DNA from: Spirochaetia bacterium
GTDB taxonomy: Bacteria > Spirochaetota > Spirochaetia > DSM-2461
NCBI GenBank assembly: GCA_963666985.2
Contig: CAXXIA010000002.1
Location: forward strand, 1,600,001 to 1,664,000
Direction of reading: 5' to 3'
Length of the DNA: 64,000 nucleotides
In this document: piece after piece, positions 27,579-59,714 of the stretch
Layout of the letters: each line of letters opens with the position of its first letter
Position numbering within the stretch: the stretch's first letter is position 1
The notes under the pieces: model-generated
Database searches by the model: none
The model's input: only the letters and a program-made list of their open reading frames with translations
Told to the model about the DNA's origin: nothing
Position numbers and translations under genes: made by a program

Positions 27579-27731
27579 TTGTATTTCTTTTTTTAAATAA
27601 AGAAATCCTATGCCATCGATGCACAAAAAACTGATTTATGAATATTCTAATTAATTACAGTAAACATTTGAAGAGGCTTCGTTAGCACAGGTTTGTTAAT
27701 CATTCCTTCGGCTTTAATCGGAATCTGCAAA

Positions 27732-28628: not shown

Positions 28629-28891
28629 CTGATGTTCTCTAACGGATCCTTTATAAAAATTAGGCTGAAAACGCATTAAAATCCAATCGGGCAATAATAC
28701 AATAATGCAAGAATAACACTATTTTTTCAGCCCTTTTCGCGATTGTAATATTTCATAATTAAACAAGATCTACAATCACTTCAATCATGAAATTGCTTTC
28801 AAGTCATGATGTTAATAGCTGTTTTTTTCTCATTTCCATCAATCCGGTTCCGATGATATCGGGTTACATTCATCAATTCTCTTCCAACAGA

Positions 28892-29875
28892 CTACTTATA
28901 TTCAATAATCGTATTCTTTCGGCGGAACCGATTATTTATACGATACTTACACAAACCAATAAATTGAGGTAATTTGGCCGCCATACAATGAATTGAATAA
29001 ATCACGGCTTCATTCTTTTTTAATCCTTGCCTCCGCCAAAGAGATAGAAAGATTTTCACTGTCATTAACGGGTAAACAATAAGGAAAAATAAACCCCTTC
29101 CGCCAAGTAGAATCAAGAAGATAACGGTAATCAGCGGAATTACCCCTATCCAAAAAAGAAGACTTCGCTTTTCCTTAACATAATAATGCTCCCGAGAGCG
29201 ACCATACATGGAAGAGCCCAAAGCATAGGCATATCCTCCTCTCATGGAACGACGCCACCATTGAAAAAAATGCGTCATCGCGACATCATGAAACCCCATT
29301 TCGTCTGGGATTCTCCATATTTTATAGCCGATGGAACGAATTCTTATGCACAGTTCCCCCTCTTCTCCTGCGATAACGGTCTTATTCATTCCACCAAGAC
29401 GGCGATATACTTCTGATCGAACTACAAAAATCCCGCCGCAGGCTTCTATTTCGCCTACAGGGCCCCTCCATTCGATATCACAAATCCTATTATAAATAGT
29501 CTTCTCGGGATATTGTTCATAAAGAAATCCGCAGACAACCGCGACGTTCTTCGATTCGTTAAGAAAAGAGACTGCCTTCTCCAGCCATCCGTTACTCAGC
29601 TCACAGTCTCCGTCAACAAATTGGACGTATTCAAGCTCAGGGTATCGTTCCGTCAGCTTTTCAAAGCCCTCGTTCCTTCCGCGGGCTGCTGAAAATGGCT
29701 CATCGGCGCTAAGCTCCCATACAAGCACGCCCATTTCTTTCGCCAAAAAAACACTATTGTCCGAAGAACCCGAATCAACATAGATAACCTTCTCGGTAAC
29801 ATGTAAAACGGACTTCAAACAAAGCGGAAGACGCTTGCCCTCATTTCTTCCGATAACAACGACACCGATATTCAT
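28892..29875 (-). CDS. Glycosyltransferase family 2
   Basis: IGVVVIGRNEG, YVDSGSSD, FSAARGRNEG, FVDGD, AGEEGELC. Confidence 0.9.
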   Translation of the reverse strand: MNIGVVVIGRNEGKRLPLCLKSVLHVTEKVIYVDSGSSDNSVFLAKEMGVLVWELSADEPFSAARGRNEGFEKLTERYPELEYVQFVDGDCELSNGWLEKAVSFLNESKNVAVVCGFLYEQYPEKTIYNRICDIEWRGPVGEIEACGGIFVVRSEVYRRLGGMNKTVIAGEEGELCIRIRSIGYKIWRIPDEMGFHDVAMTHFFQWWRRSMRGGYAYALGSSMYGRSREHYYVKEKRSLLFWIGVIPLITVIFLILLGGRGLFFLIVYPLMTVKIFLSLWRRQGLKKNEAVIYSIHCMAAKLPQFIGLCKYRINNRFRRKNTIIEYK

Positions 29876-31119
29876 ATACTTTTCACTTCCGTTCTTTCCG
29901 ATGGATGTAAAATATCTTCAAAGAAGTTCGCCATGCTTCGACAATTTTTTCTCAGATCATAATCTTCCAGAATTGTTTTCCTTCCGCTTTCACCAAGCCG
30001 CTTTCTTTTTGAAGGATCATTTATGAGGTCTCGAATAGCCTCTACCAGCGACGTGGTTTCGGAGGCATAGACAAGCCGGCCATTCTCGCCGTCCCGGATC
30101 AACTCCGGGATTCCGTTTATATATGTGGATATCGTTGCAATGCCTTTAGCCATTGATTCCATAAGAACCACGGGCAAGCCTTCGGCAAAACTGGGAAGAA
30201 TGAAAATATCAGCTTTATCGTAGTATTGATGAACTTCCGCTTGTCCAACGGCACCGGTAAAGCTAACGGCCTCTTCCCAGCCATGCTCCGCTACGGCTCG
30301 CTCTAATCCCGCACGATCCGGGCCGTCGCCAACAAATGTCAAATGAACATTTAGACCTTCCGAAAGGAGAAGTCCAACCGCCTCCAGAAGAATATGCTGA
30401 CCCTTAGCCGGAACAAGACGACCCAGGCAGAGAATCTCTGGAATATTATTGCCGGGTTCGGGCCGAAGATCGAAAACATCGGGATCAATTCCACAGCGTA
30501 TAATTCGAAATTTGGTCCAATCCTCTGTCGGAACAAGGCGCATGGCTTGACTGCAGCAATAATGACTGATACATCGAACACCGGCCGCTCTCTGAATCTT
30601 ACGAACCAACGCGTTCCCGGGAATGTCGAAAAAAACATCCGGTCCATGGAGACTAATGCTGTACTCAAAAGATCCATAACTCGCGGCAATCATCGCAACC
30701 GTGGCCGCAGGATTCGCAAAATGAACATGAAGATGAACGGCTTCATTTCTTTTCATCCAGCGAATTATAAGGACGGCCTCGAAGAAGTACATTGTTCTTT
30801 TAATCCAAGAAACCGAAGTCTCATCCAATAACCTATGCGCATTAATAAATAAGCGCAAATAGCGAAAAGGAGAAGAAAAGAAAAGACTTAGGTGATCCCT
30901 AAAGACAGTCATCTTCCCGGCCGACTTAATATAAAAGGTCTCTTGTTTGTCCCGCTGTTCTTCGGGGGTCATTCTTTCAACATTCTTTGAATCGTTAATA
31001 GATGCTGTTATAACACTATACCCCCGGTCGCGAAGAATCCGTACCTCTCGAAAAATAAAGGTATGAGAGATAGCCGGGTACTCGCTCGCAAGATAGCCAA
31101 TTTTTTGATTAGTTATCAT
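29872..31119 (-). CDS. Glycosyltransferase family 4 (WcaL-like)
   Basis: YPAISHTFIFRE, HLHVHFAN, GRLVPAKG, PSFAEGLPVVLMESMA. Confidence 0.92.
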   Translation of the reverse strand: MITNQKIGYLASEYPAISHTFIFREVRILRDRGYSVITASINDSKNVERMTPEEQRDKQETFYIKSAGKMTVFRDHLSLFFSSPFRYLRLFINAHRLLDETSVSWIKRTMYFFEAVLIIRWMKRNEAVHLHVHFANPAATVAMIAASYGSFEYSISLHGPDVFFDIPGNALVRKIQRAAGVRCISHYCCSQAMRLVPTEDWTKFRIIRCGIDPDVFDLRPEPGNNIPEILCLGRLVPAKGQHILLEAVGLLLSEGLNVHLTFVGDGPDRAGLERAVAEHGWEEAVSFTGAVGQAEVHQYYDKADIFILPSFAEGLPVVLMESMAKGIATISTYINGIPELIRDGENGRLVYASETTSLVEAIRDLINDPSKRKRLGESGRKTILEDYDLRKNCRSMANFFEDILHPSERTEVKSI

Positions 31120-31258: not shown

Positions 31259-32389
31259 TCAATCATCCGTTTCGGATACATCGGCCGGTTTCGTACCCCG
31301 AAGCTTCGCCGAAAGCGATTCGGTAAGCATTACCAGAATCGCCCAGGGAGTTTTCAAGATAATCCAAACGTCATTAAGAAAGGTTATCTTTTTGCAATAG
31401 GCGATGTCCAGACGAATCATCTGTTTGAAAGTTAACTTGTTCTTTCCGCTAACCTGCCAAAGGCCTGTAAGACCCGGCATTGTATCGAATCTGTGTGTGT
31501 GCCAACGAAGATATTCCTGTGCCTCGTAGGGTATACAGGGACGGGGACCGACCAGACTCATATCTCCTTTTAATATATTCCAAAGCTGAGGCAACTCGTC
31601 GATACAGGTCGCTCTTAGGATTTTTCCCCCGGGGATAATGCGAGGATCGTGTCCGTCCAGTTTATCCATGGGAACATTTCCATCCTTGATAAAATTTTGT
31701 GAATGTTTGCCATGAAAATCCTGATCGTTCCCATGTTTCATAGATCTGAACTTGTGGAATTGAAACGGGATTCCCTTATAGCCGATTCTTTCCTGATGAA
31801 AGAAAATAGGACCCGGTGAAATTATTTTTATATACAACCCGACAAAAATAAGGAGTGGCGAGAGAAGCAATATCATCAAAAAGGAAATAAGGATGTCCAT
31901 TGTCCTTTTCCAGATAGGCATCTTATAAACAAAGATAGCTTCCATGGCGGCTTTGCTTTCGCTGGAGAGAAAATCCTGATGCAAACCACCGCCGAGATAA
32001 TTCGCAACCCAATGATCCGGATAGGTATACACATTTAACTCGAAGTAGTGTCGATAATGACCGAGGATACCCCGACATTTTTCGCAAAAAACGCGGGCTC
32101 CCTCGTTGTCGGTATCCGGCAGAAGAATGGAAATATTCCCCTGTTTATCCCATGCAACTCGATCTACGGATCTGATGGAATGGAAAATTGCGATAAGGAG
32201 TTCATTAAAAATGACCTCTTCTTTGAGTATAAAATCTAAAACAACCATAGAAAACGGATTCCCGAATCGATTTGACCTAACCCGTTCGTGATTGACGAGG
32301 ACTCGAAACTCTTCAGGTGAAAGAATAATCCCCGTTTCCGGGAACTGAAGACCATGCGCGGCCGATTTTTTTATCTTTGAGGCTATCAT
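31259..32389 (-). CDS. Priming phosphoglycosyl transferase (bacterial sugar transferase) with N-terminal degenerate GGDEF-like domain
   Basis: KRTMD, KFRSM, DPR, IDELPQLWNILKGDMSLVGPRP; N-terminal ERVRSNR...RSVD...ILLPDT. Confidence 0.9.
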   Translation of the reverse strand: MIASKIKKSAAHGLQFPETGIILSPEEFRVLVNHERVRSNRFGNPFSMVVLDFILKEEVIFNELLIAIFHSIRSVDRVAWDKQGNISILLPDTDNEGARVFCEKCRGILGHYRHYFELNVYTYPDHWVANYLGGGLHQDFLSSESKAAMEAIFVYKMPIWKRTMDILISFLMILLLSPLLIFVGLYIKIISPGPIFFHQERIGYKGIPFQFHKFRSMKHGNDQDFHGKHSQNFIKDGNVPMDKLDGHDPRIIPGGKILRATCIDELPQLWNILKGDMSLVGPRPCIPYEAQEYLRWHTHRFDTMPGLTGLWQVSGKNKLTFKQMIRLDIAYCKKITFLNDVWIILKTPWAILVMLTESLSAKLRGTKPADVSETDD

Positions 32390-32517
32390 TCTTTTTAACC
32401 TTGTTTGGGAAGTCCTCTAATTAACCGATATCAATACTCAAGCCCAATAAGGCTCTCAGAAAATTACGATATTGAAAATATCGCACTATGGACCAACTAT
32501 CAGACACTTGATGGAAA

Positions 32518-33558
32518 TTAATGCTGCTTTTCTTCTATTTCGCTCAGGATCCCTTTCGACGGCTTCCTGCGGATCAGCGCCCGCCGGGCCTTTACCCAAA
32601 ATTCACAGATATAAACAATAATCATTATTTGGACTATTGAGATTAAAAAGGAAGAGAAGACATCATTGGAAAAGCCGCCGAAAACAAAAGCTAGAGATTT
32701 TTTAATCAACCCGCCGATTATTGTATGAAAGGCTAGAAGCGGGATTGCATAGCGATTGATCAGCCTTGTTAAGCTGGTCGGTTTAAGGCTTCTGGAGGCA
32801 ATGATTACAGTATAAATACCGAAAAGCGACGCAGGAATAAGGATCATGACTTTTCCCGCTTCATGATAATATAAATCTAATCGGCCGTTTGAAAACGCAA
32901 GAAATATTGATATGAGAAAGAATGGAATCAATAAATGTTCCTCAATTTTCAACAATCCGGGCGATTCTTTTGAATTGTAGATCGCACCTAAGTGAAAATA
33001 AAACAGCCCGATAAAGGCAATATCGATACTCCACGGTAATGCGAATTTGAATTTAAAAAGATATATCCCAAAAATGGTCAGCAACAAAAAAACAATTGTA
33101 TTTATCAGCGCTCCAAGTTGAAGCTTTTCGAATAACCAATAGAATTCATTCATTAGAAAAAGACAGGGTAAAAACCACATAGGTATTCCCCATTCCATAT
33201 ATTTCGGGCCACCCTGAGCGTAAAATATACCTATTACGTTTTTTATTACCCTCTCACAACTTGTAATCCCTCCCGACAGCCATCCCAAAGAAAGCCATTT
33301 AAGAAATAAAATTGCAGCGAATATAAAATAGGGAAGAACAAGTCGGTGAATCTTCTTCCGTGTAAAAGTCGCAAATGATGATTCTCTTTTGCAGTTAAAA
33401 ACAACACCGCTAATAAAAAAGAACAAGGGAATATGAAAAGAATATACATAGTGAAAAACCGGATTCTGAATGTGATGGCCCCAAATCACGCAAAAAATGC
33501 CGATTGCGCGCGCAGTATCAATGTATTGCAGTCTATCCTGCTGAGTTATTTGATTCAT
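32518..33558 (-). CDS. Acyltransferase family 3 (membrane O-acyltransferase)
   Basis: RLQYIDTARAIGIFCVIWGH, YSFHIPLFFFISG, RLVLPY, MWFLPCLF; about 10 TM helices. Confidence 0.9.
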   Translation of the reverse strand: MNQITQQDRLQYIDTARAIGIFCVIWGHHIQNPVFHYVYSFHIPLFFFISGVVFNCKRESSFATFTRKKIHRLVLPYFIFAAILFLKWLSLGWLSGGITSCERVIKNVIGIFYAQGGPKYMEWGIPMWFLPCLFLMNEFYWLFEKLQLGALINTIVFLLLTIFGIYLFKFKFALPWSIDIAFIGLFYFHLGAIYNSKESPGLLKIEEHLLIPFFLISIFLAFSNGRLDLYYHEAGKVMILIPASLFGIYTVIIASRSLKPTSLTRLINRYAIPLLAFHTIIGGLIKKSLAFVFGGFSNDVFSSFLISIVQIMIIVYICEFWVKARRALIRRKPSKGILSEIEEKQH

Positions 33559-33572
33559 TGTTGCTGTGTTTC

Positions 33573-36500
33573 CTAAATTGCGTTGTTTTCTAAAGCCTGT
33601 TTTATTTTATTAGCCGTCTCTTCGGCATAAGGCGCTTTCAGGATTTCCAAATGTGTCCCCGGTGTATTTTCAATAAACAAGTTATCTCCGAAATACTCAG
33701 CCCAGCCATACTTGGGATCAAAATAGAATCCGGGCTTATTCTGCTCTCCAATTGCTTTTATTAGCAATGTTTTTCCTTGATACTTATATTTGTGAGAAAT
33801 ATTATTTTTTTCGAATTGTTTGGTGGCAACTTGGTAAACTCGAATTCTTTGCAGAAGATTCATATCATTCTCTGTTTGTGTATTATGCTTCAGACTATCG
33901 ATTTTTTCCTTGATGGCTTTTAGGGTGGCAGGAACTCCCCTCTTAAAACTTTTTTTAATTTGATTCATCAATTTCTCAATTGGCTTTCGCTTGATTGCCG
34001 AAAGAAGTAATGTGTCAAGTATAATCAGTAATTCCACCTCTTGTCCGGCTTCCTTAAGTTTCTTTGCCACATCATATGCCACAACCCCGCCGAAAGATAA
34101 ACCGATGATGGAAACAGGTCTTCCCTGACTATGCTGTCGGATAATATTACAATAATCGGAAGCAAATGCTTCAATATTCCATTCGTCCTGACCTTGATCC
34201 CCAATAAGCAGATTTACTTCCCTGGGATGGTATGTAGCATAGCATTTTGCAATATCGGCCAAATGAACCGCTAATTCATGGTACATCTGAACACCAATGA
34301 CAAAATAGAAAAGCCGATCTGCAGAAGATTTATTGATTTCGATAACATTCTTTAATTCATATTCCGGTTGAGAATGAAGAAGCTCATAATTTTCCGCGTT
34401 TCTGGATAAACTTCCCAACAATCCTCTTAAGATATGATTACAATCTATAAAATTCGTTTGCAGAACATCGCCCTGCTCCGCTTCGGAGTTAATGTAACTG
34501 AGTAATTTCAAGGTTCCATTATCTTCACGGACATCCAGGTACAGTGGATTTTTCTCCCAAATTCGCGGGTTGAATGAATATTCAAACTCAAGCCCCGGAA
34601 AGTCCAAGTCACCTTCTTTATAGGCGGCACTATTATTAATGACAAAATCAGCTTGCGGTATTCTATCCCCTAATTCCACTCGTAAACTTTCTATATCAAC
34701 CAAATGATCATAAGCATTTAAAAAAGCCGTTTGTGTTGCCTTCACAATATCTAGAAAACTACTTTTAGTTGTAAGGTCCAAATTCAACAAAACAAGATTG
34801 GCACAGTTCCCGATCAAGTCGTGTTTGTTAACCCATAACTGACCGGCGATTGGAACTCCAATGGTAATGTTTGATCGTCCGAATGTATCTCTCAAAATGG
34901 AGTACATCATCGATACCATCAAAATAAACACGCTGTAGTTTGTTGTTGCGCTTACGTTCTTTAACTGACGGTACACATCACCGTCTATTGAAAACTCTCT
35001 ATACCTTGTCTTAATTGTTGAGCAGGAACCTATCTTAATAATTGGCTGCACGGTTTTTGCTCTGAATTGATCAAAACGCTCATTCCAATAATTTATTATG
35101 CCTTGATAAGTTTCTTCTTCTTTTCGACTTTTCAAGAAATGTACATAATCATGGAAATCGAATACCGTAGTTTGGGACTTGGATTCGACCCCGAGGGTAT
35201 ACGCCTCGGACAATTTTTTTAAAATAATATCGAAGGACCATCCGTCACATATGGATCTGTGATACAGAAGAAGTACGATCCATTCATCTCTTGTTTTTCG
35301 TAGGATATGAACTCTGATCAACGGACCGTCGGTAAGATTGAAGGGCGATTGGTGTTCATGTAAAAGAAGATCGTTATAGAACGCATCCTGTGTTTTTTCG
35401 GGAGATTCCCTCAGATCATGAAATTCATATAACGGAAAGAAATTTTTGCGAACGCGAAATCCTGTTCCCTCTTGTGTATAGACCGCATGCAATATTTCAT
35501 TATTGCTGATTACCTTGTTGAAAGAATCGGTAAATCGATCCTTGTCAAAATCACCTTTGAAAAACAATCTAACCGAATCGATATATAAGCAGGAACGTGT
35601 TTCGTCTTTGCATTCTTGCCATATCGATATTTGGGCGTCGGTGGCCGGAATTTCATAATTCCCGAGATTTTTTCTTTCAAGTATTTCATTCTCTGAAATA
35701 GATACTTCGACATTTCGTGAAGGATTTAAATTCTTCTTGTGAGTATCGATATATTCAAAAAGAAGCCTGATATTGGGGTATTCTTGGAGTAACTGGCCAA
35801 AGGTTACGTTAACCTTAAATTCTTTACTAACCCGATATGCAATCTGAGTTAATAAAAGAGAATCCATCCCCATTTCCATAAAGGTAGATTCTTCATCGAA
35901 GTCATCAAGGGAAAACCCGGAGGTCTCTTCAAAAAGAGAAACGAGTTTCTCAACGCTTCCGGAGGTCTTATCCTCCGTCAATTCCTCGGACGCTCCCGTT
36001 GAGAATCCGTTTTCACGCTCCCCGTCGTTATCACCTGTTTCCATCACCTTAATAACAACAGGATCAACCCAATAACTTTTCCGATCAAACTGATATGTGG
36101 GAATAGGAATCTTCCTTCTTATTTCATTCTGGTAGAACGATTCCCAATCTATGGAATATCCGTAAAGCCAGAGCTGGCCAACGGCTCTTAAGACCGCCGT
36201 ATATTCGGCATTATTCTCCGCTTTAGAATCCATGGAAGAAATAATTCCCCGCGCTTTATTCGGTTGAAGATGCTGTCGGGTAAGTGTCGCAAGTGTATTC
36301 CGTGGGCCAACTTCCAAGAAAACAGCATTCTCTCTTTCGGAAAGGTATTGAATTGCATTGGAAAAAAGCACCGGGTTTTTAACGTGATTACCCCAATAAG
36401 ACGGTTCCGTTAATTCTTCTGAAACCGCTCTGCCCAGAACCGTAGAGACAATAGGAATCTGAGGCGTCCGTAAAGAAACCTTGGCCACCTCTTCCGTAAA

Positions 36501-39500
36501 AACAGGAACAACCGGTTCCATCATCTCCGAATGAAAAGCATGAGAGGTATGAAGAAGACTGTGCGGAATCTCTTCTTTCTCCAGAGTCACGATAACTCCG
36601 TTTATGGCCTCATCCGGTCCCGATAAAACACAGAGATTTGGACTATTAACCGCCGCAAGCTGAATGGATTCGGATAAATACTTCTCCACCTCTGCAACCG
36701 GCGCCTTCACGGAAAGCATACATCCGCCGGGCATCTCTTTGACTAATCGACCTCGGGCGGCTACAAGAGTCAGAGCTTCTTCTAAGGTAAATACACCGGA
36801 AAGACAGGCACATACAAACTCACCAATGCTGTGCCCAACCAGAATTGACGGCTTTATTCCCCAAGACATCAGGAGCATGGATAAAGCATACTCAATCACA
36901 AAAATAGCAGGCTGAGTAAAAAATGTATCCTTTAATGCTTCATAAGAGGCTTTTTCATCTTGTGAATCAGGATAAACAACCGTCCGAAGATCTCGACCAA
37001 GAAGATTCTCCAGAAAATCACAGCACTGATCGACAGCTTGTTTGAAGATAGGCTCTCCCGCATAAAGCTGTTTTCCCATATTGATGTATTGCGATCCCTG
37101 TCCGGGAAACATAAAGACGATTTCAGGCTCTTTCTCCAAACACGTTCGCGATCCTGTTGTTAACGGCGACCTCTTGCCGAATGCCTCCTGAGGATTTACA
37201 TCATCAGGAACAACAAGAAATCTCCTTTCGGAAAAACCTCTCCGCCCCGTCTGAAGAGTATAGGCCGCATCGGCTTTGACATTGGCTTTTTCAGCCGATA
37301 AAAAATGCCCCATCTTGGCTGTTACTTCCTCTAAGCTTGAAGAAGTTTTCGCAGACAGAAGAAACAATTGAACGGGCCGGGAAGGGCCTGATTCGTTATA
37401 GACTGGAGCTTCCTTTACAACAGCATGAACGTTTGTTCCGCCGAAACCGAAACTTGAAACGGCCGCAATTCTTTTTTTCCCGCCTCTTTTCCAAGCAGTC
37501 CTTTTATTAACAACCCAAAACGGACTGCTTGGAAAATCAATTTGCGGATTCTGAGATTTATAATTAAGCGTTGCGGGGATCTCCTCATGATAAAGACAGA
37601 GCGCCGCCTTGATTAAACCGGTAACTCCAGATGCAATCGTTGGGTGACCGATATTTCCCTTTATGGATCCAATTCCGCAAAATTGTGTCTTGTCCGTTTG
37701 CTTCCTGAATGCTTTAGTCAATGCTTCGATTTCTATGGGATCACCTATCGGCGTAGCCGTCCCATGAGCTTCAATGTAGCCGATATCTTCACTCACTACA
37801 TTTGCTTCGGCTTGAGCCCTTTCTATCACATCGGATTGTCCGGAAACACTCGGAGCAAGAAAACTGATCTTTTGTGATCCGTCGTTGTTTTTCGCGGATC
37901 CGATAATCGTGGCGTAAATCGTATCATTATCTTCCAAGGCTTCTTCCAGCCTTTTCAGCACAACAACACCAACACCATCGCAAAACATCGTTCCGGATGC
38001 CTCGGCGTCAAAGGGGCGGCAATGACCGTCTTTGGAAAAGGTTCCGCTCGGTTGATACAGGAATCCCCTTCTTTGAGGAATCCCTATATCGGAACCTCCG
38101 GCTATGGCGATATCACATTCATAATCCCTTAATGCCCGAAAGGCCAAATCCACAGCAAGAAGACTCGTTGAACAGCCAGTGTTTACGCTTACACCCGGTC
38201 CGGTTAAGTCAAGGGCATAGCACGTTCTTGTAGCGATATAATCCTTTTGGTTCCCATACTCAACGGTAAGATTGCCTACGGTATCAAGTAAATCTTTATG
38301 TCCGATTAAATTGACTGAGTAGTAGTGATTATCTCCGACTCCCGCGAAAGCGCCTATCGTGCCCGGATACGACTCCGAATCATAGCCGGCATGTTCCAGC
38401 GCCTTCCATGCCTCTTCAAGAAAAACCCGCTGCTGGGGGTCCATTACTTTTGCTTCCAGAGGAGAAACCCCAAAGAAAGAGGCATCAAAAAGATCTGCGT
38501 TATTTACGATACCTCTTGCAAGAATGTAATTCGGATTGTCCAGGAGATCTTCGTCGATACCCGGGCTCAATTGATCACGGGTAAAACGCGTAATTGACTC
38601 AACCTCGTTTATAATATTTTGCCAAAGTTCATCAATTGAATCGGCTCCCGGAAAACGGCCGGACATACCGATAATTGCGATTCCTTCGATATTATTGTGA
38701 TGCTTTTTGGAATAAAGATGTTTCTTTAACGACGAATTCCTTGCATTGCCGTCAAGCAGATCGGCAAATTGAGCTATCGTCGGATATTGAAATATTCTGA
38801 GGACCTGATAATCGGTACCAAAAGTGTCGTTTATTCTCGAAATCAGCTGGATTGCCAGAAGAGAAGATCCCCCAACTTCGAAAAAGCTGTCGTCAATTCC
38901 AATTCGGTCAAGATCAAGCTGTTCCTGCCAGAGACCTACGAGCTTTTTCTCCGTTTCACTCCTCGGGTTAATATAGGGAGTGGAAATATCCGGACGTGTT
39001 TGAACGGGTTTCGGTAATAATTTTCTATCCAGTTTACCATTGGAACTAAGCGGAAATTCATCTATACGTACATAGTGGCTCGGCACCATATACTCTGGGA
39101 GTTTCTGCCTGAGATGATCTTTGTATATTGAGATTGGGACGGATTTTTCCGTATTGGTTTTAACATATCCAACAAGACGTTTGAAACCCGGAACATCTTC
39201 CCTTAAAATCACAACCGCCTGATCCACAATCTCAAGTTCTTCAAGGCAAGATTCAATTTCTTCCAGTTCTACACGGAAGCCGCTGATTTTTACTTGTGAA
39301 TCAATCCTGCCCAGATATTCCACCGCACCATCGTCCCTGATCTGAGCCAAATCTCCCGTTTTATAGAATCTTATACAGCACCCTTGTGCATCCGCTTGCG
39401 TTATGAATTTTTCCGCCGTCAGTTCGGGCTTATTGATATATCCTCTCGCAACACCTATACCTGAAATATACAGCTCACCGCTTTCCCCTCTCTTAACCTC

Positions 39501-40529
39501 ATTACCGTTTTCGTCATGAATCGTAATATTGATATTGGAAATCGGAAAACCAATGGGCACACGGGAAAGATTTTTATCAGGACGACAATGCCAGCTGGTT
39601 ACATCAACGGCAGCTTCGGTAGGACCATATAGATTGTATAAATCGCCCTTACATAAATCAAAAAATCGATTATGAACGGCAACGTCCAAAGCCTCCCCGC
39701 TACAAATGACAAACCGAAGGGAATCGGAACGCTCCATTCTTTGTGATTCAAGAAATATCCGAAGCATAGAGGGAACGAAATGAACTATTGTTACGTTCTC
39801 CTCATCGATTAAATTAAGCAGATATTCAGGATCTTTATGTCCCTCGGGACGGGCAATTACCAATCGGGCGCCGATCATAAGCGGCCAAAAGAACTCCCAT
39901 ACGGATACATCAAATGAATACGGAGTTTTTTGAAGAACCGTATCCTCTTGTGTCATCTGAAATTCAGACTGCATCCACAGCAATCGGTTAACAATGCCGT
40001 CGTGCTGGTTCATAACGCCTTTAGGCATTCCCGTTGAACCGGAGGTATAAATTAAATACGCCAAATTTTCAGGAGTAACGGAGACTTCCGGATTTTCAAT
40101 GGCCGCCTCAGTCGGATCTAAATATTCACCAATACTGATAAAACGTATGGAAGATGTTATTTTCTCTTTAAATTTTATTTGCCCCAAGACAAGCAAAGCA
40201 CAGCTTTCTTCCAGCATATAATGAATTCGTTTTTCAGGCAGTGACGGATCTATCGGCAAATAAGCACCGCCTGCTTTGAGAATAGCAAGAAGAGCTATGA
40301 CCATCTCAAAAGATCTTTCCGCACAGACTCCGACGATTATATCTGCTTGCACACCAGCACGAATTAAATCTCGGGCGAGTATATTGGCTCTGAGATTCAT
40401 TTCAAAATAACTGAGAGATTGCTTTTCAAATTTCAGGGCTATTTGGCTGGGAAATCTGCTCGCCTGCTCTTCAATATAATGATGTAAACACTTTTCCCGA
40501 ATAAATTTATCATTCCCCGTGGCCGACAT
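33573..40529 (-). CDS. Hybrid NRPS / type I PKS: A-T-KS-AT-ACP-C(degenerate)-TE
   Basis: A: YTSGSTGMPKG, FDVSVWE, YGPTE, YKTGD, NGKLDR; T: FFEVGGSSL; KS: TGCSTSL, EAHGTAT, NIGH; AT: GQGSQ, GHSIGE, HAFH; ACP: MGMDSL; C: HRSICDG; TE: GLSFGG...GTH. Confidence 0.93.
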   Translation of the reverse strand: MSATGNDKFIREKCLHHYIEEQASRFPSQIALKFEKQSLSYFEMNLRANILARDLIRAGVQADIIVGVCAERSFEMVIALLAILKAGGAYLPIDPSLPEKRIHYMLEESCALLVLGQIKFKEKITSSIRFISIGEYLDPTEAAIENPEVSVTPENLAYLIYTSGSTGMPKGVMNQHDGIVNRLLWMQSEFQMTQEDTVLQKTPYSFDVSVWEFFWPLMIGARLVIARPEGHKDPEYLLNLIDEENVTIVHFVPSMLRIFLESQRMERSDSLRFVICSGEALDVAVHNRFFDLCKGDLYNLYGPTEAAVDVTSWHCRPDKNLSRVPIGFPISNINITIHDENGNEVKRGESGELYISGIGVARGYINKPELTAEKFITQADAQGCCIRFYKTGDLAQIRDDGAVEYLGRIDSQVKISGFRVELEEIESCLEELEIVDQAVVILREDVPGFKRLVGYVKTNTEKSVPISIYKDHLRQKLPEYMVPSHYVRIDEFPLSSNGKLDRKLLPKPVQTRPDISTPYINPRSETEKKLVGLWQEQLDLDRIGIDDSFFEVGGSSLLAIQLISRINDTFGTDYQVLRIFQYPTIAQFADLLDGNARNSSLKKHLYSKKHHNNIEGIAIIGMSGRFPGADSIDELWQNIINEVESITRFTRDQLSPGIDEDLLDNPNYILARGIVNNADLFDASFFGVSPLEAKVMDPQQRVFLEEAWKALEHAGYDSESYPGTIGAFAGVGDNHYYSVNLIGHKDLLDTVGNLTVEYGNQKDYIATRTCYALDLTGPGVSVNTGCSTSLLAVDLAFRALRDYECDIAIAGGSDIGIPQRRGFLYQPSGTFSKDGHCRPFDAEASGTMFCDGVGVVVLKRLEEALEDNDTIYATIIGSAKNNDGSQKISFLAPSVSGQSDVIERAQAEANVVSEDIGYIEAHGTATPIGDPIEIEALTKAFRKQTDKTQFCGIGSIKGNIGHPTIASGVTGLIKAALCLYHEEIPATLNYKSQNPQIDFPSSPFWVVNKRTAWKRGGKKRIAAVSSFGFGGTNVHAVVKEAPVYNESGPSRPVQLFLLSAKTSSSLEEVTAKMGHFLSAEKANVKADAAYTLQTGRRGFSERRFLVVPDDVNPQEAFGKRSPLTTGSRTCLEKEPEIVFMFPGQGSQYINMGKQLYAGEPIFKQAVDQCCDFLENLLGRDLRTVVYPDSQDEKASYEALKDTFFTQPAIFVIEYALSMLLMSWGIKPSILVGHSIGEFVCACLSGVFTLEEALTLVAARGRLVKEMPGGCMLSVKAPVAEVEKYLSESIQLAAVNSPNLCVLSGPDEAINGVIVTLEKEEIPHSLLHTSHAFHSEMMEPVVPVFTEEVAKVSLRTPQIPIVSTVLGRAVSEELTEPSYWGNHVKNPVLFSNAIQYLSERENAVFLEVGPRNTLATLTRQHLQPNKARGIISSMDSKAENNAEYTAVLRAVGQLWLYGYSIDWESFYQNEIRRKIPIPTYQFDRKSYWVDPVVIKVMETGDNDGERENGFSTGASEELTEDKTSGSVEKLVSLFEETSGFSLDDFDEESTFMEMGMDSLLLTQIAYRVSKEFKVNVTFGQLLQEYPNIRLLFEYIDTHKKNLNPSRNVEVSISENEILERKNLGNYEIPATDAQISIWQECKDETRSCLYIDSVRLFFKGDFDKDRFTDSFNKVISNNEILHAVYTQEGTGFRVRKNFFPLYEFHDLRESPEKTQDAFYNDLLLHEHQSPFNLTDGPLIRVHILRKTRDEWIVLLLYHRSICDGWSFDIILKKLSEAYTLGVESKSQTTVFDFHDYVHFLKSRKEEETYQGIINYWNERFDQFRAKTVQPIIKIGSCSTIKTRYREFSIDGDVYRQLKNVSATTNYSVFILMVSMMYSILRDTFGRSNITIGVPIAGQLWVNKHDLIGNCANLVLLNLDLTTKSSFLDIVKATQTAFLNAYDHLVDIESLRVELGDRIPQADFVINNSAAYKEGDLDFPGLEFEYSFNPRIWEKNPLYLDVREDNGTLKLLSYINSEAEQGDVLQTNFIDCNHILRGLLGSLSRNAENYELLHSQPEYELKNVIEINKSSADRLFYFVIGVQMYHELAVHLADIAKCYATYHPREVNLLIGDQGQDEWNIEAFASDYCNIIRQHSQGRPVSIIGLSFGGVVAYDVAKKLKEAGQEVELLIILDTLLLSAIKRKPIEKLMNQIKKSFKRGVPATLKAIKEKIDSLKHNTQTENDMNLLQRIRVYQVATKQFEKNNISHKYKYQGKTLLIKAIGEQNKPGFYFDPKYGWAEYFGDNLFIENTPGTHLEILKAPYAEETANKIKQALENNAI

Positions 40530-40543
40530 AAAAAGACCTCTTG

Positions 40544-41476
40544 TTAACTAAAAACATCACTTTGTAAAAATTTGATTATGCTGTCTTGGTCCATCACACC
40601 ATGCCCGCCGCGAAGTTTCAACCACCTTACCCGATAGCCTAGACTTACAGCCTTTTCCGCCATTAATTTATTTCCCGAATAGAGCCCTAAAGCATCCTGT
40701 TTCCCACAGGAAATATAAACGCTGTTTTCTTTCGGCGCGGTTCTCATCGTTTGGAAAATGTTATACCGATTCCAGTCGTCTTCAGTCGTTAAATAGCGTT
40801 TTTGAATGGATAAAACCGATTGGGCGCCATCCGTCCAGAGTTCTTTACGCAACACAATGTTTTTTATTTTTTCTCTTATCGTATTTCCGCCGTTCCTTTT
40901 CAGAAATCCATTAATTTCTTCATCTGTTGCGGTAAATGGAATGGGATAAATTCCTGCGGAAATCAAGATGGCGGAATTAAAGAAATCTGGATGATTGAAA
41001 AAGAGATACGAAGCACTCGTCCCGCCCATTGAAAAGCCCATTATAATTCTTTGATGATTCTTCCACCCCAGTTTTGACTCTATTTCCGGAATAACATCTT
41101 GAATTAAACGCTGTCCATAATCATTCTGCGGATCCGTAGGATTGGGTATGCACATAGTTTCCGGACCCGCCGAAAGCGATACAACCGCAATATTTTTACT
41201 TGTTGTTTTAAAATATTGATCATAATAACCCATCTCGGAATACCATGAGTCTTCGTTTCCGCCCTGGCCGTGCAGGTAATAGAAAACAAATTCCGGAGGA
41301 GTATGCTCCTCATTACCATAAAGCAAAACAACAGCACGAAAAGAATGTAATTCCATTCGTTCCATCTCAACTCGTTCTCCGCTCGTATTTTCGAAAAAAG
41401 CCTCCGCCTTTTGCCTTGGGATACAACCCGTGATGAACAATATCAACAGTAAAAAGGGAAGACTTCCTTTCTTCAT
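40544..41476 (-). CDS. Lipoprotein alpha/beta-fold esterase
   Basis: Lipobox ITGC, YYLHGQGG, GFSMGG, CGKQD, GGH. Confidence 0.85.
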   Translation of the reverse strand: MKKGSLPFLLLILFITGCIPRQKAEAFFENTSGERVEMERMELHSFRAVVLLYGNEEHTPPEFVFYYLHGQGGNEDSWYSEMGYYDQYFKTTSKNIAVVSLSAGPETMCIPNPTDPQNDYGQRLIQDVIPEIESKLGWKNHQRIIMGFSMGGTSASYLFFNHPDFFNSAILISAGIYPIPFTATDEEINGFLKRNGGNTIREKIKNIVLRKELWTDGAQSVLSIQKRYLTTEDDWNRYNIFQTMRTAPKENSVYISCGKQDALGLYSGNKLMAEKAVSLGYRVRWLKLRGGHGVMDQDSIIKFLQSDVFS

Positions 41477-41642
41477 ATTACCTCTCCGCAAAATCAACAA
41501 GACCCAATCAAAGCCAAATCGTAACGTTTCCTCTAATTTTGACCGCTGACTGTTTACGGCCTTGCAGCATCGCCGACTGTCTTTAACTCTATCACAAATC
41601 TCCGGCGCATCACCAGCAACAGACTATAATTACAAGAGGTTG

Positions 41643-42818
41643 TTAGTTTGGGTTAACATTATTGGAGCGCACATTTTCATTCGTTTCATTTAATTTGGAT
41701 TCGGCGGAATGCCGACGTTTCGCTTTTTGATGAACATAAGAAACAAAATGTCCGATCATCACGGGAACCGTTTTCAGAATAATTCCAAGGTCTTTCCAAA
41801 AAGAAAGATTTTCTCCATATCTGATATCCAATCGAATCATTTCCTTGAACGTCAGAGTATGCTTTCCACCAACCTGCCATGAACCCGTTAATCCCGGAAC
41901 GATATCGAATCGTTTTTTGTGCCAGTGAAGATACAGCTCGGCTTCATCGGGAAGGCACGGACGAGGGCCAACAAGGCTCATATCACCGCCCAGAACATTA
42001 AAAAGCTGAGGAATCTCATCCAAACCCATGGCTCGAAAGAAACCGCCACCGGGAATGAGATGCGGATCCCAATAATCGGTACCCATCGGTGTATTGCCAT
42101 CACGAATGAAACTTAACAAATCGTTATTTGCTTCCTCTTTATTACCATCGAGCTTCATCGTTCGAAATTTAAGAATTTTTATAATACGTCCGCCAAGACC
42201 GACCCGCTCTTCATGCTGAAAAATTGGTCCGGAAGACACACAGATAATGTAGAGAGGAATAAAAAGGAAAAGGGGGAACGAAACAACCAAGCCTAAAACG
42301 CTTACAAAGACATCAAGGTATCTCTTCCATCGCGGAGGTTTCTTGCAAAACATATCCGCAAGTTTGGCATCGTAGGTAGAGTAGTACTCAGGTTCCTCTT
42401 CATCGTCGTCCACAACCATTGTGATATTGCTTATTCTGGGATACATGCTCAAGCCGACGGATTTAACCAATTTAAAATCCGCAGTGGAGTCATGAACATT
42501 TTTAATAAATGCTTGAGCCCCGCTTATGGTTGTATCGGGCAGAAGAATGCCGATTTTTGAGTCCGAATGCCACCCCGCGTAATCGGTAATACGCATGTTT
42601 ATAAATATTGTTGCGAGAAAACGGCGAAACGTATAAAGAGTAACGGCATCAAAGTCAATTTCAATAAAAACCAAACAAAAACGACTTTTGGTTCGATCGG
42701 CCCGCATTCTTTCGTAACGTATGAGCTGGTGGAAGGCGTCGCGTCTAAGCGCGCCTTCCTGGTGGGTGTGCGTTACTTGAAAAGCATTAAGGGGAGTCCA
42801 TCTCGTTTTCTTGCCCAC
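41643..42818 (-). CDS. Second priming phosphoglycosyl transferase with N-terminal degenerate GGDEF-like domain
   Basis: KRYLD, KFRTM, LDEIPQLFNVLGGDMSLVGPRP; N-terminal ERMRADR...RITD...ILLPDT; GTG start uncertain. Confidence 0.88.
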   Translation of the reverse strand: MGKKTRWTPLNAFQVTHTHQEGALRRDAFHQLIRYERMRADRTKSRFCLVFIEIDFDAVTLYTFRRFLATIFINMRITDYAGWHSDSKIGILLPDTTISGAQAFIKNVHDSTADFKLVKSVGLSMYPRISNITMVVDDDEEEPEYYSTYDAKLADMFCKKPPRWKRYLDVFVSVLGLVVSFPLFLFIPLYIICVSSGPIFQHEERVGLGGRIIKILKFRTMKLDGNKEEANNDLLSFIRDGNTPMGTDYWDPHLIPGGGFFRAMGLDEIPQLFNVLGGDMSLVGPRPCLPDEAELYLHWHKKRFDIVPGLTGSWQVGGKHTLTFKEMIRLDIRYGENLSFWKDLGIILKTVPVMIGHFVSYVHQKAKRRHSAESKLNETNENVRSNNVNPN

Positions 42819-43042
42819 AATACCCAGTATAGAACGAATTACGGACTATAAATAGTCGGCCGCGACTCTTTTAATATTGTGACGATCCTCCTTGACTTCG
42901 TAAGAATTTCATGAATGAGGCCGATTTCCTTACCGTCTCATTGACATGCGCAGATGAAGTAGATAACTTTATTCATAGATAGTCGCTTTTTTTTTCCACA
43001 AGTTTTTTTTTTGAAATAAAGCGCGTTACTTTAAGGTTCATA

Positions 43043-43525
43043 ATGAACGGGAAGAATCGTAAACTCCTAGCTCACCTCAATGCTCTCGGCCTGTATACGG
43101 AGAAAGAATTCTATCGTATTCATGATTATGAGAAACTCCGCTCCGACAGAAACGGTATGCAATTCTCTTATATTATTCTCAATCTCGATACTAAGGCTAT
43201 TCCTTTGCGATCAGTCAAAAAACTGATAATGGGCATCCTCGGACAACTCCGCATTATCGACCATATCGGTTTGAGCGGGACGGATCGTATCGGTATTCTC
43301 CTTCCCGGTACCGAAAAAAGCGGCGCTTTGGGTTTCCTGAAGAATATTAATCATCTCCTTTCGGAGTTCCCTGGAATTTCCGTTGATGACATTATAACCT
43401 ATCCGGAACCCCAAGCTCTGATGACGGCAGTATCGGCATCCGTGGCTTCCGCAGCCATAGTGGAATCGTCCGATACCGCTGAAGCGGAGGAAGTCGTCAT
43501 TATCCCCTTTGAAATAAGCAAGTAG
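43043..43525 (+). CDS. Stand-alone degenerate GGDEF-like protein
   Basis: GLYTEKEF...EKLRSDR...RIID-HIGLS-GTDRI-GILLPGT...TYP; aligns with the N-termini of both sugar transferases. Confidence 0.7.
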   Translation: MNGKNRKLLAHLNALGLYTEKEFYRIHDYEKLRSDRNGMQFSYIILNLDTKAIPLRSVKKLIMGILGQLRIIDHIGLSGTDRIGILLPGTEKSGALGFLKNINHLLSEFPGISVDDIITYPEPQALMTAVSASVASAAIVESSDTAEAEEVVIIPFEISK

Positions 43526-43577
43526 TTCCACAGCAAGAGAAACAAGACCTTTACGGTCGGAGAACGGGACTGCTAAT

Positions 43578-44819
43578 ATGGCCGTAATGAATAAACTTCC
43601 CACTCTCACAGAACCGATTGAAACACCGGATAAACCAAAAAGTATTATAGATATCCTTCTTAAATACCTCATAATGCTCTGGCGTTACCGCGTGTTGATG
43701 GGAATTATCACAGCCTCGGGAACCTTCGTCGTTTTTACATTCTGCCTGCTTACCAAACTGCTGCCGCCGGAGATCAATCCTATGCCGAATCAATATACGG
43801 CCCAAGCGGTTCTCCTTGTCGATCGAGACAGTTCCGGCGGAGGGATCGGTTCCATTTTAGCCAGTTACGGTATGAATCTCGGCTTAGGATCATCTTCCGG
43901 CGGTAATAATATCGACCTGATTCTGACCATCTTGGACAGCCGTCCTTTTCTCGACCTTTTGGTGGAAGAATTTGATATTATCAACGAGAGAAGAATCAAA
44001 CTCGACCCAAAAACGAATTCCCGTCTAATAATTCAGAACATGTCCTCTCATTGGTATGATAAAACTTCAAATACGCTTACTTTAAGCTGTACCCACACAG
44101 ATCCGGAGTATGCGGCCGATTTCGTTAACAGACAGATTGAACTTCTCGAACAATGGTATACGCAATTCGGCGGACAGCGCGCCGAAAAGGATCTTCACCT
44201 CCTCGAGGTTCAGCTGGCCAACCAGGAAGGCCAAATAGCCCGGCTTGAAGATGAAATTAAAAAATTTCAACAGGAAAACAACACCATTTCGATCGAAGAT
44301 TTGGCCGCTCTTCAAGCGAAAATGATTGGCGATCTTCGAACCCAAATAACCCAGATTGATTTACAAATTCAAACGGCCCAGCAGTTTTCACAAGCCGCGA
44401 TTGAAAGCGAAAGCCTCATCAACTTAAGACTCCAGCGCAACAATCTGAACTATATGATTTCACAGTTGGAAAAAGGATATTCCGGCGGTGTAAAAATCAT
44501 GCCTTCGGCGGAAGAACTTCCGGACCTGGCCATCAAATATACAAAACTCCGTCAGGAAGCGGAGATTCAAGCAACTGTCTACCAAAAACTTCGGGAACAA
44601 TACGAAATAGCCAATCTCAATCAGGAACGAGCCGAAGCGTTCTCCGTGATGGAATATGCGGAAGTTCCCGAGTTAAAAGACTCTCCCCGCCGTTCGGTGA
44701 TTGTTGTCGGAGGCTTCTTCGTTTCTCTGCTCATCAGCATCCTCGTCGCATTCATTCTGGAATATTCGGGTCAAGTCATCGATATAATCAAGGAGAAAAT
44801 CAAGAATGAACAATCGTAA
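43578..44819 (+). CDS. Polysaccharide co-polymerase / chain-length determinant (Wzz/GumC-like, no kinase domain)
   Basis: TM-YTAQAVLL...coiled coil...EYAEVPELKDSPRRS-TM. Confidence 0.85.
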   Translation: MAVMNKLPTLTEPIETPDKPKSIIDILLKYLIMLWRYRVLMGIITASGTFVVFTFCLLTKLLPPEINPMPNQYTAQAVLLVDRDSSGGGIGSILASYGMNLGLGSSSGGNNIDLILTILDSRPFLDLLVEEFDIINERRIKLDPKTNSRLIIQNMSSHWYDKTSNTLTLSCTHTDPEYAADFVNRQIELLEQWYTQFGGQRAEKDLHLLEVQLANQEGQIARLEDEIKKFQQENNTISIEDLAALQAKMIGDLRTQITQIDLQIQTAQQFSQAAIESESLINLRLQRNNLNYMISQLEKGYSGGVKIMPSAEELPDLAIKYTKLRQEAEIQATVYQKLREQYEIANLNQERAEAFSVMEYAEVPELKDSPRRSVIVVGGFFVSLLISILVAFILEYSGQVIDIIKEKIKNEQS

Positions 44820-46314
44820 ACCACTATTACTTCTCTCCCTGATACTCCTCGGGGGTTTTGCCTGGGGGCAGGCTACTCCCGGAACCGACGAACAGGCCAA
44901 TTCGCCCAGCAGCGACCAAATGACGGCCATGGCTCTCGCCGATTCAACTTATCCGGTTACGCCCGGCGACCAATACAGCCTCTCTTTCTCCTTTCGCGGT
45001 CAGATGCAAGACGTTCCCATTTCCGTAACCACCGATTACCGTCTCGATCTTGGAATTTTCGGATCGGTTGAAGCCGACGGCTTAACATTCCCTGAACTTA
45101 AAACTCTCGCCGAACAGACGGTCAACGGGTTCTATCCGGGAAGCCACCCTCAGCTCACCATTGAAAGCATCGGTGAATTCCAAGTCAGTATCTTCATGGA
45201 AGGCAAAGGACCCGTTTCCATCAATGCCAGCGGATTAACCCGGCTTAAGGACGTCATCGACAATCTTGTTCCCGATGATGAATACTCTCAGCGGAAAATC
45301 CTCATTACAAACCGTTCCGGTGAGAGTTCCTATTACGACTACTATCGGTATCTTTACCGTCACGAAGAACGATCTAATCCCCACCTTCAGCCGGGCCAAA
45401 GAGTTCATTTCTCTTATTCGGATCTTGTTGTTGAGATTACCGGCGCGGTCCGGGAACCAAAGACAATCTCCATAATTGCCCGGGATACGATGGACTCAAT
45501 CATTTCCTATGTCGGAGGATTCACACAGGAAGCCGACCGATCCCGTATTCAAAAATGGCAAATCGTCGAGGGCGAGCAGATTTACAGTCTCCACGAATGG
45601 GGCGACAAGGAACTGCTGACCGCACGTTCAAGCCATCTGCGGATTAACGTCCCCGCCCGGGGAGAAACCCGTAAGGTTATGACCGTCGAAATCAATACGC
45701 CGGCGATAGATAATGACGATGATGATGTAACAATGTACGACGAAGTTCAGGGCGAGTCGGTTACGGGTGAATACATTCGTCTTACAATACCGGTATTCGA
45801 AGGTATGCTGGTTTCAGACGTACTGGAAGAAGTAAAACCCTACTTCACGCATATGACCGATCTTCGTTTCAGCAGTATTGTCCGCGAAGGCGAAGAAGAG
45901 CCCCTTCACGTTAATCTGGAAGATGTTCTCAACACCTCGGGCAGTCCTTATAACATAACGGTTAAGCCTAACGACATTCTGGGCATCCCAGCACGAATGG
46001 TATTCGTTTCGGTCTCGGGCGGCGTCTATGTTCCCGGCCGTTATTACTACACACCGATGAGAACCGCCGATTATTACATCACCATGGCCGGGGGTATCGA
46101 TCCCGAACAAAATTCCCATAGAAACATCGTGGTATATGATGAAACGGGAAACCAGAAAGACCGAAAGGCGTTAATAAAACCGGGCGACAATATCGTCGTC
46201 GTTCAAGACAACATGGTTTTTCAGTTTAACGAGAAATTTGCGGCCGTTACCACTGGACTGACATTCATCACGACTTTGACTCTTCTGATAACAACACTTG
46301 CCGGCGGACTTTAG
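44806..46314 (+). CDS. Polysaccharide export protein with SLBB domains (Wza/OPX-like)
   Basis: Signal peptide, YPVTPGD, VEITGAVREP, VSGGVYVPG...YITMAGG, C-terminal hydrophobic helix. Confidence 0.82.
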   Translation: MNNRKPLLLLSLILLGGFAWGQATPGTDEQANSPSSDQMTAMALADSTYPVTPGDQYSLSFSFRGQMQDVPISVTTDYRLDLGIFGSVEADGLTFPELKTLAEQTVNGFYPGSHPQLTIESIGEFQVSIFMEGKGPVSINASGLTRLKDVIDNLVPDDEYSQRKILITNRSGESSYYDYYRYLYRHEERSNPHLQPGQRVHFSYSDLVVEITGAVREPKTISIIARDTMDSIISYVGGFTQEADRSRIQKWQIVEGEQIYSLHEWGDKELLTARSSHLRINVPARGETRKVMTVEINTPAIDNDDDDVTMYDEVQGESVTGEYIRLTIPVFEGMLVSDVLEEVKPYFTHMTDLRFSSIVREGEEEPLHVNLEDVLNTSGSPYNITVKPNDILGIPARMVFVSVSGGVYVPGRYYYTPMRTADYYITMAGGIDPEQNSHRNIVVYDETGNQKDRKALIKPGDNIVVVQDNMVFQFNEKFAAVTTGLTFITTLTLLITTLAGGL

Positions 46315-59698: not shown

Positions 59699-59714
59699 AT
59701 TACAAATCTGTATT
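59699..59714. promoter_or_regulatory. Candidate enhancer (UAS) for sigma54 activator
   Basis: ATTACA-AATC-TGTATT, 12/16 identical to the site at 57740 and also starting 72 bp beyond the -24 element; overlaps the activator stop codon. Confidence 0.5.

Follow-up and report, generated by a model that had tools for sequence, protein, structure and literature searches.

Truncated GGDEF domains without cyclase motifs at the N-termini of two priming sugar transferases of a spirochaete: a possible c-di-GMP switch at the first step of the Wzx/Wzy pathway

The two enzymes predicted to prime surface-polysaccharide synthesis at a locus of a Spirochaetia bacterium begin with a truncated GGDEF fold that lacks the motifs of a diguanylate cyclase. 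The locus lies in a window of 64,000 nt (the whole stretch of DNA that was analysed; assembly GCA_963666985.2, contig CAXXIA010000002.1, positions 1,600,001-1,664,000), from a host genome of 4.86 Mb in 3 contigs. The enzymes are small monotopic phosphoglycosyl transferases (PGTs), named here PGT-A and PGT-B, which share 39% identity and are the only Bac_transf-type proteins of the whole genome. The N-terminal domain, which is also encoded nearby as a stand-alone protein (Table 1), probably binds c-di-GMP (cyclic diguanosine monophosphate), to judge from the residues that it retains. On balance, we favour the reading that c-di-GMP cross-links PGT domain dimers, and thereby switches the first committed step of the Wzx/Wzy surface-polysaccharide pathway.

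The GGDEF ancestry of these segments is not apparent in routine searches. In both PGTs, Pfam recovers Bac_transf (PF02397) only, and no GGDEF family was found in the three window proteins by the Pfam (PF00990 included) or NCBIfam scans. A single-sequence search with the PGT-A domain recovered one relative only, and the members of the family are annotated as "sugar transferase" or "hypothetical protein"; the family is, in effect, invisible to standard annotation. The relationship emerges at the level of profiles and structures. A profile of the three window copies matches solved diguanylate cyclases with a best E of 7.3e-7, in an alignment that places the RxxD motif on the inhibitory site (I-site) of the cyclases and the dead pentapeptide on GGEEF, and a profile of 87 sequences reaches E=2.9e-14. 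The AlphaFold2 model of the stand-alone copy (predicted local distance difference test, pLDDT, 87) recovers nothing but GGDEF domains at the top ranks of Foldseek. It aligns with 6khu (VIA Z 12.6, root-mean-square deviation (rmsd) 2.8, 112 aligned residues) and with WspR 3bre (Z 11.5, rmsd 2.1, 110 aligned), and the structural Z of the GGDEF-type entries runs from 12.6 to 8.2, with the first unrelated fold at 7.7. A first-pass annotation, made from the sequence alone, had proposed a GGDEF-like start for both sugar transferases and had named Foldseek as a means of checking it, and both the profile and the structural searches bear this out.

The domain is truncated as well as inactive. The structural match is restricted to WspR 174-304, or approximately 110 residues (the domain itself measures ~105 residues), and, given that it ends at WspR 304, the C-terminal part of the usual 161-position GGDEF domain is missing. 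The pentapeptide is replaced by KQGNI in PGT-A and SDSKI in PGT-B, each followed by [GS]ILLP, and in the alignment to 3i5b the DxxxFKxxND stretch is shortened by some nine residues and is unrecognisable. Neither GG[DE]EF nor DxxxFKxxND, the stretch that binds metal and GTP in active cyclases, is found in the domain. Both losses had been read correctly in the first-pass annotation, as had the RxxD motifs located five residues before the dead pentapeptide, RSVD in PGT-A and RITD in PGT-B. The same annotation counted the two fused copies and missed the third, stand-alone one, which has no hydrophobic segment and carries RIID in the same register.

The retention of the putative binding residues was followed through the wider family. 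A profile of 11 sequences, searched against 1.84 billion representatives, recovered 1127 clusters (50% identity) at E<=1e-10, a list whose weaker part may include ordinary cyclases. The best 150 of these representatives contain 166 domain rows, with a mean identity of 33%, in which the RxxD arginine and aspartate are each present in 163 of 164, and the glutamate, first arginine, and last arginine of a second motif, ExxRxxR, in 164, 159, and 161 of 165, respectively, whereas the GGDEF positions are variable. Since this set is biased to the motifs of the query, a second was chosen by the PGT region alone, comprising the best 120 relatives, and the domain was aligned after masking of the motif columns in the profile. 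The domain is present in 116 of them, and the other four are proteins of 224-274 aa with short N-termini. All 116 domains carry RxxD in register, against background frequencies of ~7% each for arginine and aspartate, although these relatives are kin with 60-76% PGT identity, and are not independent draws. Each ExxRxxR arginine is retained in 115 of 115, and all four residues in 114 of the 114 scorable domains, at a mean pairwise domain identity of 38%. Conservation of RxxD across the homologues, on which the first-pass annotation had staked its proposal, thus holds, and the motif stands five residues before the GGDEF position in 3/3 window copies, as it does in the 116 relatives.

These counts bear on the alternative of a residual diguanylate cyclase, or of a decaying relic with no function, which is extremely improbable. 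Descent from cyclases is clear, and 43 of 87 short family members still match the Pfam GGDEF family weakly (best E=4e-6), but a GGDEF-like motif is present in 0/116 of the PGT-selected domains and an FKxxND-like pattern in 1/120 of the N-termini, the fold stops short, and the retention of four residues at this level of divergence is not expected of a relic.

The second motif indicates how a binding site might be built. The first-pass annotation had seen the E..R..R pattern, while missing its role: the last arginine corresponds to WspR R198, on the first helix, as counted on the 3i5b alignment with the offset fixed on R242. The first arginine falls on WspR R195, which we take to be the position of PleD R313. 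In WspR, R198 belongs to a symmetry-related domain, whose contribution makes the I-site complete, and both R198A and R242A purify nucleotide-free (PMC2270323). PelD, by contrast, depends on a third arginine within the domain itself, R402 (R395 in Bacillus cereus; PMC7112168), some 32-35 residues after that of RxxD, and no arginine is conserved 26 to 36 positions after the RxxD arginine in the family, the maximum at any position being 32/165. The analogy with PelD drawn by the first-pass annotation is therefore sound for a shortened, dead GGDEF domain with RxxD, but not for the third arginine in cis, in whose place the WspR-type arginine in trans is kept. Given the retention of the one and the lack of conservation of the other, the site is likely to be built from two domains. 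Tandem copies (double or triple), found in 12 of the 150 best representatives, nine of which also have a PGT, fit a site of this type.

A model of the complex is compatible with this arrangement. Two copies of PGT-A 14-132, supplied with four c-di-GMP molecules, gave a score of 0.64, compared with 0.00 for the best of three controls; 20 of 30 solved pairs attain the mark used, as does one of 23 single chains. The runs agree in at least 95% of the contacts, with a pLDDT of at least 78, and the contact of lowest error joins residue 41 of one copy to residue 73 of the other. As similar complexes (WspR and PleD) have been solved, this pass may reflect memory, and it speaks for compatibility only.

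The alternative that no nucleotide is bound, with the domain being a module for dimerization or protein docking, and the invariant arginine, aspartate, and glutamate having structural roles, seems quite unlikely. GGDEF domains can dock, as in the recruitment of DgkB by GdpS of Staphylococcus aureus (PMC11962490), large monotopic PGTs function in dimeric form, and a partner protein activates EpsZ (PMC12802240); positions with no part in binding are also similarly conserved. Against this, the I-site and the R198-position residue are kept together in only 4/23 of the active cyclases of the same genome, and the modelled interface, into which the ligand was placed, pairs two arginines, a contact not easily accounted for unless an anionic ligand is present. 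A site of this kind may also accept another ligand, such as 3'3'-cyclic GMP-AMP (3'3'-cGAMP), guanosine tetra- or pentaphosphate ((p)ppGpp), or a uridine diphosphate (UDP)-sugar or uridine monophosphate (UMP) in a feedback loop. PleD complexes with (p)ppGpp have been solved, going by the titles of 9g85 and 9g86, and Hypr GGDEF enzymes are described as making cGAMP in Geobacter, with members of the present family being found in the Desulfobulbaceae. This is nevertheless very unlikely, as RxxD together with the R198 arginine is the documented c-di-GMP site (PMC2270323), and the PilZ and VpsT-like genes co-located with some of the fusions represent families of c-di-GMP receptors.

In the enzymatic half of the fusions, the catalytic KFR, DE, and PRP motifs are intact in PGT-A and kept in PGT-B, and both proteins have the single hydrophobic re-entrant segment, the Asp-Glu dyad, and the PRP motif of the small monotopic PGTs, the dyad and PRP being described for that class in PMC10186338, even though no NCBIfam PGT model reaches its cut-off on the fusions. 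In PGT-B, 14 of 90 family-conserved columns are changed, some of them near the predicted sugar pocket, compared with a family median of one, in an alignment that is rich in PGT-A kin and in which six other rows deviate as much or more. From its sequence, PGT-B may use a different donor or may itself act as a regulatory partner or paralogue. The full-length model of PGT-A (pLDDT 90, predicted template modelling score, pTM, 0.86) has a defined two-domain packing, its core matching PglC (Foldseek E=3e-13, 34% identity) and WbaP, and its N-terminus, GGDEF domains. A conserved C-terminal helical extension of ~90 aa is an additional feature of one spirochaete fusion clade (L033:7584-9143, L034:8142-9707, and L035-L038). 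A different arrangement is seen in P0047, of 271 aa, in which the N-terminal membrane region of a large PGT (weak TIGR03025 match over 1-135) is followed by the GGDEF-derived domain of this family instead of the usual continuation.

Taken together, the proposed mechanism would begin with c-di-GMP pairing two of the GGDEF-derived domains, each predicted to be packed on its PGT core, into a symmetric, head-to-tail dimer that would bring R41 of one domain to R73 of the other. This pairing would alter the transfer of sugar-phosphate to undecaprenyl phosphate, an effect of binding that we consider reasonably likely. Small monotopic PGTs are described as functional monomers and the large ones as dimers (PMC12802240), so ligand-driven pairing could either release an inhibitory contact or form an active dimer. 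If there is an effect, it would more plausibly be activation than inhibition, since exopolysaccharide is generally promoted by c-di-GMP, and the domain-less sister enzymes suggest that the core needs no domain. Activation could come about through dimerization of the enzyme or through the withdrawal of an inhibitory domain from the catalytic core. The stand-alone copy may tune the response by forming mixed dimers, or may act on another partner of the pathway.

A further alternative is that the domain binds c-di-GMP without any change in PGT catalysis, serving instead as a scaffold or local store, similar to BcsE, that assembles or positions the initiating enzyme with the co-polymerase, the export protein, or the nucleotide-sugar enzymes. 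There is a precedent in BcsE itself (PMC8892547), copies with no enzyme attached are found in this window, in genomes G175, G417, and G422, and at the Nitrospira locus L045, and Atlas clusters of hypothetical proteins of 126-163 aa score 0.96-0.97. This alternative is unlikely, given that fusions to the domain are seen in PGTs from three or more separate clades and that the full-length model has a defined arrangement of its two domains, both of which are a better fit to direct coupling.

A number of observations weigh against a direct c-di-GMP switch. Ordinary GGDEF domains have RxxD as their consensus, and 18 of the 23 canonical cyclases of this genome carry it (RxxD and ExxRxxR together in 4/23). 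The motif thus means little in any one protein, so that the argument rests on its retention across the family. Glycine, threonine, and Tyr-Pro positions with no known role in c-di-GMP binding are about as well conserved, which suggests that some of the invariance is structural. Individual exceptions also exist: L003 has a lysine in place of the RxxD arginine, a frame at L041 lacks ExxRxxR, and the fused domain of Nitrospira L045 reads AEHD, having lost the RxxD arginine. Five of the 53 rows of the 99%-supported clade that contains the window enzymes have no domain, and from these domain-less PGTs within a fusion clade it follows that loss of the domain is possible. A scan of 32 window open reading frames (ORFs) revealed no PilZ, VpsT-like, or cyclase gene, and none was found beside the 10 non-spirochaete fusions, where the scan covered 79 of the 157 neighbouring ORFs of all loci. 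As for the direction of the effect, a precedent for inhibition is HfsK, which is inactivated by c-di-GMP in holdfast synthesis (PMC5362036). At L045 (746-1315 and 2311-3498), the stand-alone neighbour of the fusion retains RDTD and ExxRxxR, and complementation in trans is possible in this pair.

The fusion has a wide, patchy distribution. A search of 401 genomes from the phylum gave eight domain-PGT fusions among its 29 best non-self loci, the others being ordinary GGDEF-type proteins, and 41 nearer genomes yielded seven fusions and two stand-alone copies among 15 non-self loci, all nine of which have both motifs. The trait appears to be patchy, since no domain match was found in the 13 genomes of the same genus that were searched (71-95% complete). 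Among 80 named loci listed in a full-length alignment search with generic PGT patterns, which is a sample rather than a census, at least 10 carry the domain: seven from Acidobacteriota, with Nitrospira, a planctomycete, and a betaproteobacterium; a triple-domain form is named Desulfobulbaceae. Overall, the family ranges over spirochaetes, Desulfobulbaceae, Acidobacteriota, Nitrospirota, Planctomycetota, and one betaproteobacterium. A FastTree phylogeny of 140 PGT cores needs five gains or losses of the domain, of which at least three are forced by well-supported branches. Fused and unfused representatives are alike in the motif columns and in the tryptophan that follows Tyr-Pro, and no fusion-specific interface residue was identified in this comparison, whose 98 PGT-less representatives may include many fragments from contig edges (one cluster of 134 aa holds a member of 394 aa). 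In four of the seven Acidobacteriota loci (L043, L048, L052, and L053), a gene of the NusG family lies within ~1.5 kb of the fusion.

The genomic context provides signs of c-di-GMP signalling. This genome has 35 GGDEF domains over the cut-off, and 6-32 are found in each of the five fusion-bearing relatives tested. LuxR regulators with W[IV]SR, which resembles the motif of VpsT, adjoin the fusion in five of eight spirochaete loci, and PilZ genes in two of the eight (Pfam); at L141, LuxR and PilZ are both present again, and at L140, LuxR. A receiver domain, the degenerate GGDEF domain of this family, and a PilZ domain are combined in P0127, of 371 aa.

Stand-alone copies adjoin a wzz-like gene in both this window and G175. 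In G422 (L137:8589-9071) and G417 (L139:8522-8959), the copy overlaps, or directly borders, the beginning of the gene that follows it. In G422, this gene encodes an RmlA-like nucleotidyl transferase and is clustered with genes for RmlC and a dehydratase, at a distance of 1.2 Mb from the PGT fusion; the G417 copy occupies a matching place, likewise away from its PGT fusion. These copies may possibly provide a c-di-GMP input to the nucleotide-sugar supply. In a wider reading, minimal GGDEF-derived modules may have made the initiating enzyme a direct c-di-GMP switch in several phyla, in which the messenger would fasten two enzymes, or tandem domains, to each other through the former product-inhibition site of the cyclases, with free copies and the two paralogues of a locus mixing to set which sugar is primed, and when.

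Table 1. Features of the polysaccharide locus, in positions of the window
Feature	Position	Strand	Remarks
Elongating glycosyltransferases adjoining PGT-A	26784..31119	WecG-type (+), two GT2 and one GT4 (-)	Pfam
PGT-A	31259..32389	(-)	376 aa; GGDEF domain, degenerate and truncated, at aa ~23-124, followed by small monotopic PGT at aa 161-352
GGDEF-fold domain of PGT-A, without catalytic motifs	32018..32323	(-)	profile and structural matches
ExxRxxR of PGT-A	32267..32287	(-)	ERVRSNR, aa 35-41; R41 aligned with WspR R198
RxxD I-site of PGT-A	32162..32173	(-)	RSVD, aa 73-76
PGT-B	41643..42818	(-)	391 aa; architecture of PGT-A; Bac_transf aa 165-355
ExxRxxR of PGT-B	42693..42713	(-)	ERMRADR, aa 36-42
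RxxD I-site of PGT-B	42582..42593	(-)	RITD, aa 76-79
Stand-alone domain copy	43043..43525	(+)	160 aa, soluble; EKLRSDR 43130-43150, RIID 43250-43261
Polysaccharide co-polymerase, Wzz/PCP-like	43578..44819	(+)	GNVR E=4e-5, TIGR03007 E=7e-14; under curated cut-offs
OPX/Wza-like export protein with SLBB domains	44806..46314	(+)	Pfam/NCBIfam
Wzx flippase	53089..54417	(+)	PF13440 E=1e-51, above cut-off
Candidate Wzy polymerase or ligase-like membrane protein (weak)	54524..55924	(-)	Wzy_C E=0.0017, under cut-off

The layout of the locus is that of a Wzx/Wzy pathway (Table 1), as proposed in the first-pass annotation: Wzx, a polysaccharide co-polymerase (PCP), and an outer-membrane polysaccharide export (OPX) protein are present, the latter two being recognisable, in part under the cut-offs, and the candidate for Wzy is weak. 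The gene of the stand-alone copy is divergent from PGT-B and heads the run of wzz and OPX genes. Two acyltransferases, a pyruvyl transferase, RmlC, RmlD, and an epimerase are also encoded (Pfam/NCBIfam).

The same-strand run also contains, between the genes for PGT-A and PGT-B, one for a hybrid non-ribosomal peptide synthetase-polyketide synthase of 2318 aa (33573-40529, minus strand; A-T-KS-AT-T-C-TE by Pfam), flanked by a membrane acyltransferase and an esterase (32518-33558 and 40544-41500). With these flanking genes, it is possibly a source of acyl decoration for the polysaccharide. The G+C content of the segment 50001-56000, which includes acyltransferase, pyruvyl transferase, wzx, and wzy-like genes, is 28-38%, compared with ~51% in the genome, which suggests a recently exchanged segment. 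An NtrC-family sigma-54 activator is encoded at the edge of the locus (59700-61106, minus strand). A scan with a sigma-54 consensus gave five matches, compared with 11.3 expected, and none upstream of PGT-A, PGT-B, or the stand-alone gene, and scans of 41400-43700 for sigma-70-like promoters and terminators found nothing usable.

Post-translational control of the Wzx/Wzy pathway is described as incompletely understood, whereas the control exerted by c-di-GMP is well characterised for synthase-dependent polymers (PMC12802240). The pool of undecaprenyl phosphate, on which priming draws, is limited and is shared with cell-wall synthesis, and a gate operated by a second messenger at priming would thus be a logical control point. 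If the proposed mechanism is true, a c-di-GMP gate at Wzx/Wzy priming would be a control point undescribed in the literature searched. No description of a fusion of a GGDEF-derived domain with a PGT was found in that literature, the PGT-fusion catalogue of O'Toole 2021, which could list it, lying outside the search. The passages and effector table of the 2025 review PMC12564702 name no such fusion, and neither PMC11257628 nor PMC12802240 contains the term "GGDEF" in its main text.

Among the known systems, the closest in structure are WspR of Pseudomonas aeruginosa and PleD of Caulobacter crescentus, which have the same GGDEF fold (Z 11.5 and 11.6), the same RxxD position, and an arginine at the R198 position. 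The PGT-A clade also has a basic residue, mostly lysine, 31 positions after the RxxD arginine, as in WspR. These two proteins, however, are active cyclases, in which cross-linking blocks their own catalysis, whereas the fusions have neither the catalytic motifs nor the C-terminus of the domain, and their output would be that of the transferase.

The polysaccharide systems offer other parallels. PelD of P. aeruginosa and B. cereus likewise belongs to a polysaccharide locus and has a GGDEF domain that is shortened and dead but keeps RxxD (Z 9.7, rmsd 2.8, 98 aligned residues; PMC7112168). It is, however, a membrane protein in its own right, which includes a GAF domain, serves a synthase-dependent system, and uses its R402/R395 in cis; the window proteins have no PelD-type anchor, GAF domain, or pel operon, and the Pfam PelD_GGDEF family matches one of 87 family members. 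In the cellulose system of Escherichia coli, BcsE also has a degenerate GGDEF domain, whose I-site takes a second domain to complete it (Z 8.3; PMC8892547), although BcsE has two RxxD motifs (in its REC and GGDEF domains), carries no fused enzyme, and belongs to a synthase system.

With regard to the enzymes, the small monotopic PGTs, such as PglC of Campylobacter concisus, have the same core, from which the fusions differ by their GGDEF-derived N-terminus, and regulatory fusions, such as those with receiver domains, have been reported for small monotopic PGTs (via PMC12802240). In EpsW-EpsZ of Myxococcus xanthus and CapB1-CapM of S. aureus, post-translational control is likewise exerted at the first committed step of the Wzx/Wzy pathway, and EpsW is proposed to promote an active EpsZ dimer (PMC12802240), but the input to EpsZ and CapM is a phosphorylated response regulator and a tyrosine kinase, respectively, rather than a messenger bound by the enzyme itself. 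HfsK of C. crescentus is also an enzyme that acts as a c-di-GMP effector, in the biogenesis of the holdfast polysaccharide (PMC5362036), but it is a modifier of the N-acetyltransferase family that binds through a C-terminal extension, with no GGDEF fold, and is inactivated at a step other than priming.

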